A stretch of 64,000 nt of DNA from contig JANOQJ010000088.1 of NCBI GenBank assembly GCA_031414805.1, positions 12,882 to 76,881 of the forward strand, written 5' to 3'. A model generated the notes under the pieces. That model saw only the letters and a list, made by a program, of their open reading frames with translations, did not search any database and was not told the origin of the DNA. Positions within the stretch are counted from its first letter, which is position 1. The number at the start of each line of letters is the position of its first letter. Of the stretch, positions 7,061 through 56,310 are shown piece by piece. The DNA is from Comamonadaceae bacterium (lineage in GTDB: Bacteria; Pseudomonadota; Gammaproteobacteria; Burkholderiales; Burkholderiaceae_C). Both the position numbers and the translations under genes were made by a program.

Positions 7061-7122
7061 AGTGCGAGGGGCTTGGGAGGGGCGGGTCTTACCGATAAGC
7101 CCGTTCGTACAATCGATTATCC

Positions 7123-8208
7123 ATGACCCACCCGACCGAACCGACCACTGTCTCCAACCCCATTGTGTGGGCCGATCACGAGCGACAAACGGCGTTCAAC
7201 AAATGGCTGGCCACGGTCAGCGGCCCACAGGCATTGATGCCCGAAAGCCTACGCAGTGCCTCGGCCGACGCCAGTTTTCGCCGTTACTTTCGCATTGATC
7301 AGGCCGCAGGCGGCAGCCGCATCATCATGGACGCGCCGCCCACGCTGGAAGACTGCAAACCGTTTGTCAATGTGGCTGCGTTGATGCGCCAGGCCGGCTT
7401 GCAAGTGCCAGACGTCCTGGCGTGGGACGAAACCCAGGGCTTTATGCTGCTCAGTGATGTGGGTCAGCACACCATGATGCAGGTGCTGAAGCCAGACGAG
7501 CCGCAGGCCAATCAGGCTTTGTTTCTGCAAGCGGCCGATGAGTTGGTGCGCTGGCAACTGGCTTCCCAGCCCGGCGTGCTGCCCGTCTACGACGCGCCGC
7601 TGCTGACCCGCGAACTGGCCTTGTTTCCCGACTGGTACATCGCGCGCCACCGCGCGGTGGTGCTGAGCGACAAGCACCAAGCCATTCTGGACAAAGCGTT
7701 GCAACTGATTGTTCAGCGAAATCTCGCCGCCGCCAGCGTCTATGTGCACCGCGATTTCATGCCCCGGAATTTGATGATGCCCACGGGAGACAACACCCGC
7801 CTGTCGATCCTGGACTTTCAGGACGCTGTCTATGGCCCCATCACCTACGACATTGCCAGCCTGATGCGCGACGCCTTCATTAGCTGGGACGAGGAATTCG
7901 TGCTGGACATCACGGTGCGCTACTGGCAGCGCGCCCAGAAAGCCGGGCTGCCGGTCGACGCGGACTTTGGCGACTTTTACCGCGCGGTGGAGTGGATGGG
8001 CTTGCAGCGCCATTTGAAAATAGCGGGCATTTTTGCCCGCATCACCCTGCGGGACGGCAAACCCAAATACCTGGCTGACACGCCACGCTTCATCGGCTAC
8101 ATCCGCGCCACCTGTAACCGCTACCGCGAGCTGGGGCCGCTGCTGCAGGTGATTGACCACATCGAAGGCACGCAGGCTGCCACGGGTTACGCGTTTGGGC
8201 GCGTGTAG
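7123..8208 (+). CDS. aminoglycoside-phosphotransferase-fold kinase (AmgK-like MurNAc/GlcNAc anomeric kinase candidate)
   Basis: APH-fold catalytic motif VHRDFMPRNLM and ILDFQDA. The divergent arrangement with lptD is typical for amgK. No murU follows it here. Confidence 0.6.
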   Translation: MTHPTEPTTVSNPIVWADHERQTAFNKWLATVSGPQALMPESLRSASADASFRRYFRIDQAAGGSRIIMDAPPTLEDCKPFVNVAALMRQAGLQVPDVLAWDETQGFMLLSDVGQHTMMQVLKPDEPQANQALFLQAADELVRWQLASQPGVLPVYDAPLLTRELALFPDWYIARHRAVVLSDKHQAILDKALQLIVQRNLAAASVYVHRDFMPRNLMMPTGDNTRLSILDFQDAVYGPITYDIASLMRDAFISWDEEFVLDITVRYWQRAQKAGLPVDADFGDFYRAVEWMGLQRHLKIAGIFARITLRDGKPKYLADTPRFIGYIRATCNRYRELGPLLQVIDHIEGTQAATGYAFGRV

Positions 8209-16522: not shown

Positions 16523-17455
16523 TCATGGCTGCTTCCAGTTGTGCGCCTCGTCTTGTGCCAGCACCTTGTCGCAGCACCAGGCGTAGAGCGCGTCATACAG
16601 CGGTAGGGCAGCTTGCAGCATGGTGTGGTCATCGGCGTGCAGTCGCGACAAACCCAGCGAAAACGCCAGCAAACCAGCGGATTGCGCTGCCAAGTCCAGC
16701 CGGTCGGTATCCGCCCCGCGCACGATGCGGGCCAGCAAATCCAGCGCGGGGTTTTTAAGTTCAAACCCGCCCAACAATGCATCAAAGCTGCACAACTCAC
16801 CCACATGCGAGACCGGCGCGCCGGGAATGTCGTAGGCCACCGCGTTCAAGCGCCTGGCTTCTTCAAACACCTGGGGTGTGGGCACGTAAAAAAATTCGGC
16901 GCGCGGGTCGATGAAGCGGCTAATTAACCAGGGGCAGGCAATGCGATCAATCTTGGGTCGCTCGCGTGTGATCCAATGCGAGGCGTGCTCGCCCGTGACG
17001 CCCCAATCGGGTCGCTTGCGCAGGGTGAGCGCGGGGTTCCCCCGCCACTGCTTCGTGTTCTGCGGTGTGTCCTCGCCGTCTTGCCCGCCTTCGATGCCAC
17101 CTTCGAGCGCGCAGGCATTCCAACCCGCTGCACGCAACTGCGCCACCGCATCGGCGCTGACGTTATGGCCATAGACGCAATACACCACCACCTCGCGCGG
17201 TGGCTGGCTGGCCGCCCATGCGGCCACGTCTTCGGGCTTGCAGCGCTGCGCGGTGGCGATGAGGTGGGGGCTTGAAGCAAACTTTTCTTCGCGCCGCACA
17301 TCGAGCACCAGCGGCGCGTCAGGTCTCCCCAAACGAAGGTTCAACGCCTGTGGGGAAGTGGAAAAAGCACGGTTGAACGCAGAGGGATTTGCAGATGCAA
17401 TTGAGGTGTCCACGGATAACTCCAAGTGAGAATTACCAGCGCTTGGACGGGACAC
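16523..17455 (-). CDS. rhodanese domain fused to a ChrB C-terminal (chromate resistance) domain
   Basis: N-terminal rhodanese-like segment (VLDVRREEKF...YCVYGHNVS). C-terminal ChrB-type motif RPKIDRIACPWLISRFIDP. Located directly upstream of chrA. Confidence 0.75.
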   Translation of the reverse strand: MSRPSAGNSHLELSVDTSIASANPSAFNRAFSTSPQALNLRLGRPDAPLVLDVRREEKFASSPHLIATAQRCKPEDVAAWAASQPPREVVVYCVYGHNVSADAVAQLRAAGWNACALEGGIEGGQDGEDTPQNTKQWRGNPALTLRKRPDWGVTGEHASHWITRERPKIDRIACPWLISRFIDPRAEFFYVPTPQVFEEARRLNAVAYDIPGAPVSHVGELCSFDALLGGFELKNPALDLLARIVRGADTDRLDLAAQSAGLLAFSLGLSRLHADDHTMLQAALPLYDALYAWCCDKVLAQDEAHNWKQP

Positions 17456-17556
17456 CGTCTATCTGTGAAGCAGGAGTTTCAAGATTCGGGAGGCTGCTTT
17501 CCCGATAGCTCAGATGATAGCTTGCGTTTTGATTCGACTCGCCAACTCACTCCGGG

Positions 17557-23589: not shown

Positions 23590-23638
23590 TGCTACGGCCC
23601 GAAGAAGTATCAATAGTGTGTGGCTCCGAGGAATAGTC

Positions 23639-23702
23639 GCTACTAAATCAATAGCTGCTTGAGCAGTATTCGCAAGGGCTAGTGGCCGATTTGGCACTAA
23701 AA
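23639..23702 (+). repeat. structured ~60-nt repeat, intergenic
   Basis: gctactaaatcaatagctgcttgagcagtattcgcaagggctagtggccgatttggcactaaaa. Confidence 0.9.
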
Positions 23703-23708
23703 CGGCAT

Positions 23709-23781
23709 GTTTTGCGCCCTCCCCTCCCGGGGAGGGCTGGGGTGGAGCCGGCTGTTCAACTGCCCGGCTCGCGTGACTTGG
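23709..23781 (+). repeat. second repeat module (C-rich hairpin plus gttcaact...gacttgg), copy A
   Basis: gttttgcgccctcccctcccggggaggg...tgttcaactgcccggctcgcgtgacttgg is roughly 75% similar by eye to 25792..25866. Confidence 0.7.
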
Positions 23782-23892
23782 CACGACCGAGTGTGGTGTT
23801 GCATTCTTCCTGCAAGATAAGAATGCGTCCATTCCCCGATCAATGCAATTGTGTTCAACATGCCGCCACACCCAAACCCGGTTTACTGACTG

Positions 23893-25707: not shown

Positions 25708-25720
25708 GTCGTATTCAAGC

Positions 25721-25784
25721 GCTATCGAATACGTAGCTGCCTGAGCAATCAATTCAAAGGCTGTAGCCGTATTTGGCAGTGAAC
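25721..25784 (+). repeat. structured ~60-nt repeat, diverged intergenic copy
   Basis: gctatcgaatacgtagctgcctgagcaatcaattcaaaggctgtagccgtatttggcagtgaac. Confidence 0.75.
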
Positions 25785-25791
25785 TGAGCCA

Positions 25792-25866
25792 GTTTTGCTT
25801 CCTCCCCTCCCCTCCCGGGGGCAGGTGTGGGTCAGGTTGTTCAACTCCCCTGTTCGCTTGACTTGG
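25792..25866 (+). repeat. second repeat module, copy B
   Basis: gttttgcttcctcccctcccctcccggggg...tgttcaactcccctgttcgcttgacttgg. Confidence 0.7.
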
Positions 25867-26053
25867 TTGGCAAGCGACGGCCAGCGGGGTATGCGCTGGA
25901 GAAAATCTTCGCAATCACGCGAATCGGGTTTTGTAGGACTTTGAAGTCCGCGCCGCGCCTTGCTGCGATTTTTCCATCCCACACCCGACTGCCCTGCGTA
26001 ACGGAAATTGTTGGACCGGCGGGGAAACGATCCGGTCGCCGCGTCGATTGGGA

Positions 26054-27172
26054 TCAACCGAACTCCATCATTGACTCACTTGCTCGTACTCGAATCCAGC
26101 CCAGGAGGGCCAAATTTCGAACTGCGTCAGCGACCGCATCTTTCTTTCCCGGAGTATTCCAAGCCTTCTTCCAATCGAGTACATAGTCAAATATCTGTTG
26201 CTCCTCCACTATGGCTGTCCTGTCGCCCTTCTTAACCTGTCGACTCGCAAAGAGAACCGTGAGCACTTCTTCGGCTTGCTCTGTGTTTTTGATCCGGCTA
26301 AACAAGTCAACAGTCTTGTCGATCGTCTTACGGTGCCGATCAATGTCAAGTGCAAACTTGCTGCGTTCCCTCTCAAACTGTTCGCCTACGGTCAATACGA
26401 CCATCCTTCCAAGCGGTTTTTCCTGGAGCCAGTTTCTATTGGCAAAGTCATGCAACACAGGTTTCACATCAGCTGAGAACGGGCCGTAACTGCCTTTGCC
26501 AAATTCGAAACCAGTCGTGACGCCCAGTTCAGTAACGACGTAGCAGATCTTCTGAAAGATTGTTCGACCCACCGGCGGCGCATACGGCTGACCTTGAAGT
26601 TCTCTCAGCACTTCCATAAGCGTTACCCAGCCAGGATTCATTTTTTCGTGCTTGCGCCCTTTTCCTTCCAAAGAGAGCTGAGCGGGCGCGGCGAGGAAAT
26701 CGGTCTTCAACTCGGCACTAGGCGTCCCGTAAGGGGCGAAAACCTCGATGTCGATTGGAAGGCAGTGGAGTTTGCGATAGATGAGTGGCCCGACCTCAGA
26801 CCACTCAAGTCCGCCGTTGCCGCAACCAAGAGGGGGCATAGAAATGCTCTCAATGCCCCAGCCTTGATAGTGATTAGCCAAATACGTTAGACCATGGTCG
26901 ATATCGATAAGGCGCGACGCGGAGCGCCAGTGATCCTTTGTCGGGAAGTTAAGAATGCGGAGCCCCGACCTGTCCTCGTAGAGGTAAGGTTCGCCAAGCC
27001 GAACCATCTTCCGTGCACACCTCTGTGCGTAGTCCTCAAACATGCCAGGAAAACGCTCCTTAAATTTGAGCGCGACCCCCTTGCCCATCACACCGACACA
27101 GTTGACTGTGTTCACAATTGTTTGCGCATCGGTGGCGAACATGTCGCCGATAAGTGCCTTGAAGTTTCCCAT
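26054..27172 (-). CDS. darG: DarG-type macrodomain antitoxin (DNA ADP-ribosyl glycohydrolase)
   Basis: N-terminal macrodomain motifs NTVNCVGVMGKGVALKF and PPLGCGNGGL, plus a ~200-aa C-terminal domain. Starts 6 nt downstream of darT. Confidence 0.8.
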   Translation of the reverse strand: MGNFKALIGDMFATDAQTIVNTVNCVGVMGKGVALKFKERFPGMFEDYAQRCARKMVRLGEPYLYEDRSGLRILNFPTKDHWRSASRLIDIDHGLTYLANHYQGWGIESISMPPLGCGNGGLEWSEVGPLIYRKLHCLPIDIEVFAPYGTPSAELKTDFLAAPAQLSLEGKGRKHEKMNPGWVTLMEVLRELQGQPYAPPVGRTIFQKICYVVTELGVTTGFEFGKGSYGPFSADVKPVLHDFANRNWLQEKPLGRMVVLTVGEQFERERSKFALDIDRHRKTIDKTVDLFSRIKNTEQAEEVLTVLFASRQVKKGDRTAIVEEQQIFDYVLDWKKAWNTPGKKDAVADAVRNLALLGWIRVRASESMMEFG

Positions 27173-27178
27173 ATGACG

Positions 27179-27772
27179 CTACCGGAAAAAGAAATCAGGA
27201 TTAATGTTTATAGGGAGGGCAAAGCCTTCTTCGACCAGGGTCATCCGAGCGGCCTCATTCGGTACATACGCCCCAATCAGCATAGACGCTTGGACAAGAT
27301 TCGGAATCAGCACCTCAGCACACTTGCGCGACTTGTGGCGATATCCACGTATCGCGTCATCAGGATGTGTCCAGTCACGGGCAAAGATGTCATCGAAGTC
27401 GAGATATCGCCATTGCGACGGAGCGAGGAATCGAACGTAGTCGCTCGCAGCATTCTGATCGGTGATCGCTACTCCCCGTAGTTGCAGGACTCCGACCGAG
27501 ACGCGGAGAACGCACACATCTTCGTTTCGCCGCTTGTAAAGCATCGGATTTCGCGCGTGGAAGTAGAGATTGGCGTACTGATGCAACTTCAGCCCACCCG
27601 GGACTGCCTTTACGTCTCGTTTGTCCTGTATGACTTGCATCGCCACGCTGTGATGCTTCAGCTTCGAAGCGCCTTCATGCGACAGGATGCCATGCGCAAG
27701 TACCGAAGGAATGTTCCCAATGGGCATGATGCAATGTAGTTCAGAGACTCGGTTGTCCATGCTCGTATTCAT
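27179..27772 (-). CDS. darT: DarT-type (DUF4433) ssDNA thymidine ADP-ribosyltransferase toxin
   Basis: HCIMPIGNIPSVLAHGIL, YANLYFHARNPMLY and catalytic-type CAEVLIP motifs. ATG 27772 is preceded by aagggatc. The longer ORF to 27928 was rejected. Confidence 0.78.
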   Translation of the reverse strand: MNTSMDNRVSELHCIMPIGNIPSVLAHGILSHEGASKLKHHSVAMQVIQDKRDVKAVPGGLKLHQYANLYFHARNPMLYKRRNEDVCVLRVSVGVLQLRGVAITDQNAASDYVRFLAPSQWRYLDFDDIFARDWTHPDDAIRGYRHKSRKCAEVLIPNLVQASMLIGAYVPNEAARMTLVEEGFALPININPDFFFR

Positions 27773-27861
27773 GATCCCTTTTTTGCGTCTCAGGATGTAG
27801 CGTGCTCCTACAGAACCTACGCCAAATCCACTTGCGCGCTTCTTGACAGCATAACCAAAAA

Positions 27862-27877
27862 CTGTATTTGTGTACAG
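27862..27877. promoter_or_regulatory. consensus LexA (SOS) box CTGT-N8-ACAG in the darTG promoter region
   Basis: aaCTGTatttgtgtACAGtt lies about 90 nt upstream of the darT ATG. On the minus strand it overlaps a candidate -35 TGTACA, and a candidate -10 TATGCT begins 9 nt past it (17-nt spacer between the hexamers). Confidence 0.55.
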
Positions 27878-27954
27878 TTGTGGTAGGTGGGCGCCACCGA
27901 CTGTCACAAGCGCGCAAACGAAACACAACCCCCTTGCTCAATCGGGTGCTAAAT

Positions 27955-29019
27955 TCAATTCACAACCTGCTCCAACTCCCCCCGCGCATACCTCCCCGCC
28001 ACTACCTGCAAGCTATCCCCCTTGACCTTAGACCCCTGCCCTTCACACCCAAACTGCACATACCGCTGCATACAAATCTGCTTGGCAGCTTCGCGGGCGG
28101 GTTTCAGGTAGTCACGTGGGTCAAACTTGTCGGGGTTTTCAAACATGTACTTGCGGATGGCAGCGGTCATGGCCAAACGGATGTCGGTGTCGATGTTGAT
28201 TTTGCGCACGCCGAATTTGATGGCTTCCTGAATCTCTTCGACCGGCACGCCGTAGGTCTCGCGCAGGTCGCCGCCGTATTGGCGGATGGTGGCCAGCAGG
28301 TCTTGGGGCACGCTGGAGCTGCCGTGCATGACCAAATGGGTGTTGGGAATGCGGCGGTGGATTTCCTTGATGCGGCCAATGGCGAGGATGTCGCCGGTGG
28401 GCTTGCGGGTGAATTTGTAGGCGCCGTGGCTGGTGCCGATGGCTATGGCCAGGGCGTCGAGTTGGGTGCGTTTGACGAAATCGGCGGCTTGCTCGGGGTC
28501 GGTGAGCAGTTGGTCCATGGTCATGGTGCTCTCGGTGCCGTGGCCGTCTTCCTTGTCGCCCTGCATGGTCTCCAGGCTGCCCAGGCAGCCCAGCTCGCCT
28601 TCGACGGTGACGCCCAGTTTGTGCGCCATGTCGACCACTTTGCGGGTGACATCGACGTTGTAGTCATAGCTGGCAATGGTCTTGCCGTCGGCCTCCAGGC
28701 TGCCGTCCATCATCACCGAGCTGAAACCCAGGTTCATCGCGCCCTGGCAGATGGCGGGGCTCTGGCCGTGGTCTTGGTGCATGACGACGGGAATGCTGGG
28801 GTAAGACTCGACGGCGGCGGCAATCAGGTGCCTCAAGAAGCCTTCACCGGCGTATTTGCGGGCACCGGCGCTGGCTTGCATGATGACCGGGGCACCCACT
28901 TCTTTGGCCGCTTCCATGATGGCCTGCACCTGCTCCAGGTTGTTTACATTGAAAGCTGGAATGCCGTAGCCATTGGTGGCGGCGTGGTCCAGCAGCTCGC
29001 GCATCGAAACGAGTGCCAT
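27955..29019 (-). CDS. fba: class II fructose-bisphosphate aldolase
   Basis: [30 protein letters not shown] and GTSHGAYKF motifs. Confidence 0.95.
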
Positions 29020-54429: not shown

Positions 54430-56310
54430 TCAGTCGGCTTGCGCCAATGCCGGTTGGCCGTCCGGGCGCCATACCGTACCAATCGACACGCTCTTGAGTT
54501 TCTTTTGCCGGCCGTACCACAGGTTGACCAGTCCGCGTGAAAAGAACACGGCCGAGAACATGGAGGTCAGAATGCCCAGGCAATGCACCACCGCAAAGCC
54601 ACGCACGGCACCGGAGCCAAAGGCCAGCAAGGCCAGGCCCGCAATCAGGGTGGTGATGTTGGAGTCCAGAATCGTTGCCCAGGCCCGGTCATACCCGGTG
54701 TGAATCGCAGCCTGCGGTGCTGCCCCGTTGCGCAACTCTTCCCGCACCCGCTCGTTGATCAAGACGTTCGCGTCAATGGCCATTCCCAGCACCAGCGCAA
54801 TCGCGGCCATTCCCGGCAGTGTCAGCGTTGCCTGCAACATTGACAACACCGCCACCAGGAGCAACAAGTTAAAGCCCAAAGCTATGCTGGAGAACATACC
54901 AAACAGCATGTAGTACAGGCACATGAACACGGCCACTGCCAGAAAACCGTAGCTCACACTGCGAAAGCCTTTGTCGATGTTTTCAGCGCCCAGGCTGGGA
55001 CCAATCACCCGCTCTTCAATGATTTCCATCGGCGCGGCCAGGGAGCCTGCGCGCAGCAGCAGGGCCAGATCGTTGGCCTCGCTCACCGTCATGGAGCCAG
55101 AGATTTGAAAACGGTTGCCCAGTTCGCTTTGAATCACCGGGGCGGTCAAGACTTCGGCTTTTTTCTTCTCGATCAGCAAAATCGCCATACGCTTTTTGAT
55201 GTTTTCGCGGCTGGTATCACGCATGATGCGACCACCCTTGGCATCCACCGTCAGGTCGACCTTGGGCTGCTGGGTTTGTGAGTCAAAGCCGGGTTGGGCA
55301 TCCGAGAGACTGTCGCCGGTCAGGATGATCTGTTTTTTCACAATCACCGGGCGGCCGTCGCGCTCCAGAAAACGCTCCGAGCCAAACGGCACCGGACCGC
55401 GGCCACTTTCCGCCTCGCGGCCCTCACTGCTTTCGTCGACCAGACGCATCTCCAGCGTCGCGGTACGACCAATGATGTCTTTCACTTTGGCGGGGTCTTG
55501 AATGCCCGGCAATTGAATGACGATGCGATCCGCGCCCTGCTGTTGAATCACCGGCTCGGCCACGCCCAGTTCATTGATGCGGTTGTGCAGGGTTGTGATG
55601 TTTTGCTTGAGTGACTGCTCTTGCAGCAAGCGAGCCGACTCGGGCTTGATGGTGAGCTTCAGGCGGAAGTCTTCCTGGCCTGGCACCTCCACGGCTTGCA
55701 GATCAGCAAACTGGTCGCTCACCAGGTTGCGGATTGCGTTACGGGTGGTGGCGTCTTTGGCGCGGACCTCGATGCTTTGCCCGTCGGTGCTCAAGCCACC
55801 ATGGCGGATGTTTTTCTCGCGCAAGGCACTGCGCAAATCACCTTCAAACGTTCGCACCCGCTTGACCAGCGCAGCCGACAAATCCACCTGCATCACGATG
55901 TGTACGCCGCCGCGCAAGTCCAAACCCAGGTACATGGGGAACGCATGCAGCGACGACAACCACTTGGGCGACAGCGACACGAGGTTTAACGCCACAACGT
56001 AACGCGCTTCGTCTTTGTTGGGCACTAACTCCTTTTCGATGGCGTCGCGTGCCCTGCTTTGCGTGTCGGGCGTGTCGAACCGGGCTTTCACGCCGGTGCT
56101 GTCCACCGCGACAGAAACCGGTTTGATGCTGGCGGCGGCCAAGGCCTTTTCGACCCGGGACATGGTTTCTTCATCAACCTTGACGTTCGACTTGATGGCC
56201 GAGATTTGCACCGCCGGTGCTTCACCAAAAAAATTGGGCAGTGTGTACAACGCCCCAATAATCAGCGCAAAAACAATAACGGCGTATTTCCAGACGGGGT
56301 ATCGATTCAT
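54430..56310 (-). CDS. secD: protein translocase subunit SecD
   Basis: MNRYPVWKY start and a large periplasmic domain. LGLDLRGG motif. Confidence 0.93.
   Translation of the reverse strand: MNRYPVWKYAVIVFALIIGALYTLPNFFGEAPAVQISAIKSNVKVDEETMSRVEKALAAASIKPVSVAVDSTGVKARFDTPDTQSRARDAIEKELVPNKDEARYVVALNLVSLSPKWLSSLHAFPMYLGLDLRGGVHIVMQVDLSAALVKRVRTFEGDLRSALREKNIRHGGLSTDGQSIEVRAKDATTRNAIRNLVSDQFADLQAVEVPGQEDFRLKLTIKPESARLLQEQSLKQNITTLHNRINELGVAEPVIQQQGADRIVIQLPGIQDPAKVKDIIGRTATLEMRLVDESSEGREAESGRGPVPFGSERFLERDGRPVIVKKQIILTGDSLSDAQPGFDSQTQQPKVDLTVDAKGGRIMRDTSRENIKKRMAILLIEKKKAEVLTAPVIQSELGNRFQISGSMTVSEANDLALLLRAGSLAAPMEIIEERVIGPSLGAENIDKGFRSVSYGFLAVAVFMCLYYMLFGMFSSIALGFNLLLLVAVLSMLQATLTLPGMAAIALVLGMAIDANVLINERVREELRNGAAPQAAIHTGYDRAWATILDSNITTLIAGLALLAFGSGAVRGFAVVHCLGILTSMFSAVFFSRGLVNLWYGRQKKLKSVSIGTVWRPDGQPALAQAD

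Follow-up and report, generated by a model that had tools for sequence, protein, structure and literature searches.

The window, by which we mean the whole 64,000-nt stretch of DNA that was analysed, carries a two-gene cassette directly downstream of a gene for fructose-bisphosphate aldolase, with the following features (window coordinates):

25995..27954, minus strand: darTG cassette of 1,960 bp, consisting of the predicted promoter with its LexA box, darT, darG and a 59-nt tail.
27955..29019, minus strand: fba (class II fructose-bisphosphate aldolase), the neighbour on the upstream side in the same orientation, given as context and outside the system.
27860..27879, minus strand: candidate LexA (SOS) operator, a 20-mer that reads AACTGTACACAAATACAGTT on the darT strand, with its core at 27862-27877.
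27871..27876, minus strand: predicted -35 hexamer TGTACA, in the left half-site of the operator.
27848..27853, minus strand: predicted -10 hexamer TATGCT, 8 nt downstream of ACAG.
27761..27841, minus strand: inferred 5′ leader of about 80 nt, the transcription start site (TSS) being guessed at about 27841 from the -10 position.
27179..27760, minus strand: darT, single-stranded DNA (ssDNA) thymidine ADP-ribosyltransferase toxin of 193 aa (Pfam DarT PF14487, E 2.9e-31).
26054..27172, minus strand: darG, macrodomain antitoxin of 372 aa (Pfam Macro, E 9e-14).

The PF14487 match spans the full length of DarT, which resembles the DarT structures 7OMU and 7OMV, and the glutamate in its KCAEVLIP segment aligns to what we take to be the mutated catalytic position of 7OMU. 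The darG gene is adjacent to darT and co-oriented with it, following the darT stop codon after a gap of 6 nt, and the N-terminal macrodomain of DarG resembles structures of DarG from M. tuberculosis and Thermus (5M3I and 5M31, E 1e-34 and 3e-32). Judged by these domain and structure matches, the locus is a macrodomain-type DarTG toxin-antitoxin (TA) pair. An exact-sequence look-up of DarT, in both its 197-aa and 193-aa forms, gave no match, and that of DarG gave one identical contig (L081), which was uninformative, its upstream region also being identical. No DarT relatives were found by tblastn against the PLSDB plasmids or in a scan of IMG/VR viral contigs.

An alternative darT ATG is present at 27772. 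Because the homologues are nearly all 193 aa long and begin at a conserved ATGGAC, the start at 27760 is the likelier one, and with this start the 20-mer of the box occupies positions -119 to -100. The initial annotation had put the box about 90 nt before the ATG, which holds for the ATG at 27772 (90 nt) and not for the likelier start.

Homology of the window to two contigs of the same genus (L169 and L170), whose fba proteins are 99% and 97% identical to that of the window, ends at 27955 and restarts at 25994. Since these contigs align only outside segment 25995-27954, the alignments indicate that this 1,960-bp segment is an insertion specific to the strain, placed in a slot of variable content behind the fba stop codon. 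The GC content of the cassette is 0.50-0.53 compared to 0.60 for the window, and the box is situated inside the laterally acquired cassette and not in native fba 3′ sequence. In L169, the slot (7066-7992) contains an unrelated 212-aa ORF that has no Pfam match. In L170, the slot (7066-7588) contains a different sequence, and a DUF433 gene and a 112-aa gene, which are likely a TA pair, start just downstream at about 7852. Neither an integrase nor an obvious target duplication was seen at the cassette junctions. A non-coding repeat of about 150 nt (core at 23709-23728 and 25792-25811) was found at 23637-23782 and at about 25720-25994, on both sides of a hybrid histidine-kinase gene, such that one copy borders the darTG cassette on its distal side; the repeat recurs at three places in L170. 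This repeat may be a REP/MITE-like element that marks an insertion hotspot. Elsewhere in the window, an Rfam chrB-b cis-regulatory RNA motif was detected at 17436-17505 on the minus strand (46.7 bits, compared to a gathering score of 36.5).

Positions 27862-27877 of the plus strand read CTGTATTTGTGTACAG, an exact CTGT-N8-ACAG as had been claimed in the initial annotation. This 16-nt core is enclosed by the 20-mer AACTGTATTTGTGTACAGTT at 27860-27879, the flanks of which lengthen the palindrome to AACTGTA-N6-TACAGTT, with 7 + 7 nt around a 6-nt AT-rich centre. The box lies within the 194-nt non-coding gap between the fba stop codon and darT, both genes being on the minus strand. It resembles the consensus TACTGTATATATATACAGTA over the full 20 nt, and relative to the E. 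coli dinD box, which we take to be AACTGTATATAAATACAGTT, the window site differs at only 2 of 20 positions. The host belongs to the Comamonadaceae, and its fba protein is 88-89% identical to the Polaromonas and Rhodoferax homologues. According to a paper on the Comamonadaceae member Acidovorax citrulli, most Betaproteobacteria use CTGT-N8-ACAG, and boxes of this type are located at typical SOS genes in Acidovorax (PMC6595937).

The quality of the site was evaluated with an approximate scoring matrix built from 24 E. coli LexA operators. On this matrix the 20-mer scored 23.5 bits, which falls in the middle of the scores of the 24 training operators (14-32 bits), and the runner-up site in the 64-kb window scored only 8.3 bits. 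The 16-nt core alone is not significant and would be compatible with a functionless chance palindrome: about one CTGT-N8-ACAG core is expected per 64-kb window (0.94 expected, 2 found), 29 of 100 shuffles contained at least 2 core matches, and the region is AT-richer than the genome. The complete 20-mer argues against chance, the exact tail probability of its score, which varies with GC, being about 1e-7 to 1e-8 per position. The sole other exact CTGT-N8-ACAG in the window, CTGTCCACCGCGACAG at 56099-56114, was rejected as a chance match, as it has a GC-rich spacer and a low matrix score and is inside the secD coding region. None of the classical SOS genes, including lexA, recA, uvrA, imuA and dnaE2, was found within the 64-kb window.

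The initial annotation had also proposed that the box overlaps a candidate -35 (TGTACA) that is paired with a -10 (TATGCT). Both hexamers are present and are separated by a 17-nt spacer, and the gap between ACAG and TATGCT is 8 nt. The predicted promoter has its -35 inside the box and its -10 just beyond it, but it matches the consensus at only 8 of 12 positions and did not reach the threshold of the scan tool. The sequence of the putative leader is moderately conserved among relatives; RNAalifold gave no conserved secondary structure for the leader, and no conserved ORF was found in it among the aligned sub-clade upstream regions. A canonical terminator between fba and darT was not found. Because no terminator separates the two genes, read-through from fba, a highly expressed glycolytic gene, may contribute LexA-independent expression of darTG.

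To place the box in a phylogenetic context, loci that encode DarT relatives were gathered, 80 from species-representative genomes and 80 from metagenomes, and individual contigs of the closest homologues were added. In a neighbour-joining tree of DarT, the window grouped with L165, L163, L164, L166, L168 and L167, with DarT identities to the window of 84% for L165, 79% for L164, 78% for L166 and 76% for L168. Inclusion in the footprint required at least 100 nt of upstream sequence, and L163 and L167, which have less than 90 nt, were left out. It was found that all five readable sub-clade loci, the window included, have a LexA-type box 101-119 nt before the ATG, as follows (sequence, matrix score, position):

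Window: AACTGTACACAAATACAGTT, 23.5 bits, -119.
L165: TGCTGTACATGTATACAGCT, 22.0 bits, -119.
L164: TACTGCTTATAAACACAGTG, 18.5 bits, -113.
L166: TGCTGGACGAACGTACAGTA, 16.5 bits, -109.
L168: TGCTGTACAAAAATACAGTT, 24.5 bits, -101.

The sequence on the 5′ side of the box could not be aligned among the five loci, and the only columns before the leader that are invariant in the five-locus alignment are CTG and ACAG of the box and T, A and the final T of the -10. The best promoter candidate is the same in all five, with a -35 at box offset +3, a 17-nt spacer and a -10 at +26. The -35-like hexamers are TGTACA in three loci, TGGACG and TGCTTA, and the -10 hexamers are TATGCT, TAGACT, TACAAT and, in two loci, TACACT. 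The geometry predicted for the window thus appears to be kept across the sub-clade. Given their shared ancestry, these five sites do not count as five separate events. Upstream of the box, the neighbouring gene runs in the same direction as darT in the window (fba), L166 (an unnamed ORF) and L168 (a PIN gene); L165 has a reading frame, ending in a stop codon, that also runs in this direction, and L164 has 82 nt before the box in which no gene was called. Wherever the neighbour is known, darT is therefore the only gene that the box faces.

These comparisons bear on whether the palindrome, with the TTTTT that follows it, could instead be a weak intrinsic terminator of fba. In the minus-strand RNA, UUUUUGG would come directly after a 7-bp hairpin (ACUGUAC...). 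The stem has only 2 G-C pairs, however, and was not flagged by the terminator scan, and the fold z-score is -1.2. In addition, the U-run is missing from L164 and L166, and the sequence is not part of the native fba 3′ region, as L169 and L170 diverge directly after the stop codon. We therefore regard a terminator function as very improbable.

Strong boxes were also found outside the sub-clade of the window. In a second sub-clade (L005, L083/L162, which are the same locus, and L091), they are situated 189-226 nt before the darT ATG and score 26.3 bits in L005, a complete Comamonadaceae genome, 28.5 bits in L083/L162 and 18.7 bits in L091; the singleton L089 has a 21.8-bit box at -88. In all four of these loci the box spans a -10-like hexamer, most clearly in L005, where it lies over the -10 of TTGCCA-17-TATATT. 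The best scores in the 350 nt upstream of darT were bimodal, with a median of -2.4 and a 95th percentile of 7, and outliers at 16.5-28.5 bits. In the 871 kb of loci there were 12 sites of at least 16 bits, 10 of them upstream of darT and 2 in a darG coding motif. At a threshold of at least 16.5 bits, about 0.3 sites upstream of darT would be expected (about 54,000 positions, tail probability about 6e-6), compared to the eight independent boxed loci that were found besides the window. With the box kept in place in four orthologous promoters and recurring in four more, a chance origin of the palindrome is highly unlikely.

The nine boxes are invariant at C3 T4 G5 and at A15 C16 A17 G18, and their consensus, T-R-CTGTAYAWAWATACAGT-R, equals the E. 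coli LexA consensus also beyond the core, sharing with it the AT-rich spacer and the T/A-R flanks. A blastn comparison among the loci found no homology outside coding regions, and therefore conservation of the flanks, as far as it can be detected, does not account for the recurrence of the box. In L083, L089 and L091, no Pfam match was obtained for the ORFs that precede the box.

Several weaker or misplaced matches were set aside. A LexA-box-like sequence, AACTGTnGATTTnTTCAGTC, with a score of up to 20 bits, recurs at one position in darG (L054:5431-5450, L072:5411-5430, L005:5455-5474 and L023:5467-5486). These matches, which score 12-20 bits and lie about 1.4 kb past the darT start, are a coding coincidence arising from a conserved motif (residues KTVDLFS in the window), and this motif would be a false positive in matrix scans. 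An exact core match upstream of darT in L069 lies in a coding region and was likewise attributed to chance. In L084, about 88 nt upstream of darT, GTATGTTGTTTTATCCAGTA scored 9.1 bits and has one good LexA half-site; its placement is like that of the boxes of its relatives, and it may be a decayed operator.

The matrix scan upstream of darT found no box in about 130 more distant darTG loci, nor in the Burkholderiales loci L001-L004, including Variovorax and Methylibium, the DarT proteins of which are 72-74% identical. The 80 genomes were also scanned upstream of darT for the LexA motifs of other lineages (the alphaproteobacterial GTTC-N7-GTTC, the Gram-positive GAAC-N4-GTTC, and Xanthomonad, Verrucomicrobial and cyanobacterial patterns), and only isolated, chance-level matches were obtained; this lineage-specific scan of 80 genomes gave no evidence for pan-bacterial SOS control of darTG. 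With a box in 9 of about 165 loci examined, the predicted operator is a trait of a few sub-clades and not of DarTG generally. Because most darTG loci lack a box, SOS control is not required for DarTG function.

If LexA does bind at the box, its main effect could be on something other than a darTG promoter, namely modulation of read-through from fba or control of a small RNA or peptide in the leader. The absence of a terminator between fba and darT would permit the former, and the distances in L005, L083, L091 and L089, where the box lies 88-226 nt before the ATG, leave room for the latter. There is also a perfect TTGACA at 27843-27848 on the plus strand, opposite to the darT strand and adjoining the box. 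On the other hand, the -35/-10 geometry on the darT strand is kept in five loci, and the leader is without a conserved ORF or structure. The opposite-strand TTGACA is not conserved in the relatives and has as its only -10 partner a poor hexamer inside the box; it is probably a coincidence. An effect mainly on read-through or on a small leader feature is thus quite unlikely in our estimation.

A further question is which protein would bind the palindrome. It could be an operator for a regulator other than the host LexA, such as a LexA paralogue, an S24/XRE repressor of a mobile element whose specificity is similar, or a component of the cassette acting in autoregulation. Autoregulation through palindromic operators is usual in type II TA operons, and some Betaproteobacteria are reported to have a second, non-canonical LexA (Sanchez-Alberola 2015). 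In L162, moreover, the boxed cassette is in an island rich in HTH regulators, and because a divergent HipB-like gene is located 280 nt from the box, this locus is ambiguous as to the target. However, the cassette of the window codes for no DNA-binding protein apart from DarT and DarG, and the nine sites fit the LexA consensus in their flanks and AT-rich spacer and not in the core alone. The box is also found behind genes as unrelated as fba, a globin gene and a PIN gene, which favours a ubiquitous host factor. We consider a regulator other than the host LexA to be unlikely.

The L162 island (L162:1000-11200, the same locus as L083) is of a TA/defence type and was found on a metagenome contig. 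In addition to the boxed darTG and the divergent HipB-like HTH gene, it contains genes for HipA, a DUF3368 (PIN-like) protein, an HTH-M78 peptidase, a QueC-like protein and a phage-type integrase.

Taken together, the match of the box to the LexA consensus, the -35/-10 geometry kept in the sub-clade and the recurrence of the box elsewhere give computational support to the LexA operator proposed in the initial annotation. We conclude that the palindrome is probably a true LexA operator controlling a sigma-70-type promoter that belongs to the darTG operon itself. Because the same arrangement recurs in the closest relatives, the darTG operons of this clade are very probably switched on by the SOS DNA-damage response.

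We propose that in an undamaged cell a LexA dimer would be bound to AACTGTA-N6-TACAGTT. Because the predicted -35 is in the left half-site and the -10 is 8 nt past the right half-site, LexA bound across the -35 would shut out RNA polymerase, and both toxin and antitoxin would stay low. Activation of RecA on ssDNA, as a result of DNA damage, stalled forks, phage replication or prophage induction, would lead to LexA self-cleavage and to transcription of darT and darG, presumably on a single mRNA that begins with a leader of about 80 nt. The lesions made by DarT could then cause further SOS induction and more DarTG. In E. coli, the thymidine lesions that DarT makes on ssDNA are known to stall replication and to induce RecA/SOS (PMC7003065), and this feedback loop would therefore be potentially self-reinforcing, held back by the co-induced DarG. 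LexA binding, repression, induction, the TSS, the feedback loop and the physiological purpose are all elements that we infer from the sequence comparisons. As to purpose, we can speculate that the arrangement serves to arm an anti-phage function at prophage induction or phage replication, to act as a brake on replication, or to lower the cost of carrying the cassette. More tentatively, and with considerable doubt on our part, DarTG in this clade might not be a constitutively poised TA module but a dedicated effector of SOS, held by LexA, released by RecA on ssDNA and self-amplifying up to a ceiling set by DarG.

SOS-regulated TA modules include tisB/istR-1, symE/symR, hokE, dinJ-yafQ and yafNO of E. 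coli and higBA of Caulobacter. As in these modules, a LexA box in the promoter of the toxin or TA genes would tie toxin expression to DNA damage. The toxins of the known modules attack membranes or mRNA/translation, whereas DarT makes SOS-inducing DNA lesions, and so only in DarT is the product of the toxin also the inducing signal. DarG differs as well, being an enzyme antitoxin and not a DNA-binding autorepressor. The SOS-regulated TA modules have been reviewed (PMC11951105). Compared to the canonical E. coli LexA operators (recA, lexA, umuDC and dinD), the window site shares the core, the AT-rich spacer, the TA/AA flanks and the overlap with promoter hexamers, whereas its predicted target is a laterally acquired, DNA-modifying TA cassette and not a repair, mutagenesis or division gene.

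The characterised DarTG systems are those of Thermus aquaticus, M. tuberculosis and EPEC and the phage-defence systems DarTG1/2 of E. coli (PMC5179494, PMC7689832, PMC7003065, PMC12170906). The locus described here is like them in having darT followed by darG, a DarT domain and a macrodomain DarG. In M. tuberculosis, darTG is transcriptionally linked to dnaB, unlike in the window, and depletion of DarG sets off a DNA-damage response (PMC7689832). In EPEC, RecA rises in response to DarT activity, and a lexA3 strain suffers greater toxicity (PMC7003065). In the characterised systems SOS lies downstream of DarT activity, whereas the LexA box would here place SOS upstream as well.

A comparable link between defence and damage is provided by DdaA, a WYL activator of the Moraxellaceae that regulates the response to DNA damage and also controls anti-phage defence genes (PMC12392091). 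The likeness is in the wiring of defence genes into the DNA-damage response, the rationale being defence during prophage induction. DdaA differs in being an activator and not LexA, and its targets are RM, Zorya and CRISPR-Cas, DarTG being unmentioned (PMC12392091). We found no report of a LexA site on darTG, or of SOS-dependent transcription or LexA control of it, in the full-text literature searched, in agreement with the initial annotation, which knew of no description of such regulation. LexA-regulated TA modules are already known, and a LexA box on darTG is new to the literature searched.

The scope of this finding is limited in that a minority of darTG loci are boxed and LexA-controlled TA modules are a familiar theme. 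Nevertheless, the conserved candidate operator bears on the question of how DarTG is silenced and triggered. It suggests a concrete trigger, readily amenable to testing, for one clade of a system that is widespread and acts in phage defence and growth control. LexA control of the darTG promoter through a conserved site would close a loop between a toxin that makes DNA lesions and the response to DNA damage. The suggested rationale is that DarTG would be armed when prophages are induced or replication is compromised, and if DarTG were a dedicated SOS effector, the cassette would act as a replication brake triggered by damage, deliver a burst of anti-phage activity that coincides with prophage induction or the replication of phage DNA, or do both. 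With its own LexA-gated promoter, it would be plug-and-play in any host that has a LexA of the CTGT-N8-ACAG type. A mobile defence cassette that brings along an operator of the host regulon would bear on how defence islands are integrated into global regulation.
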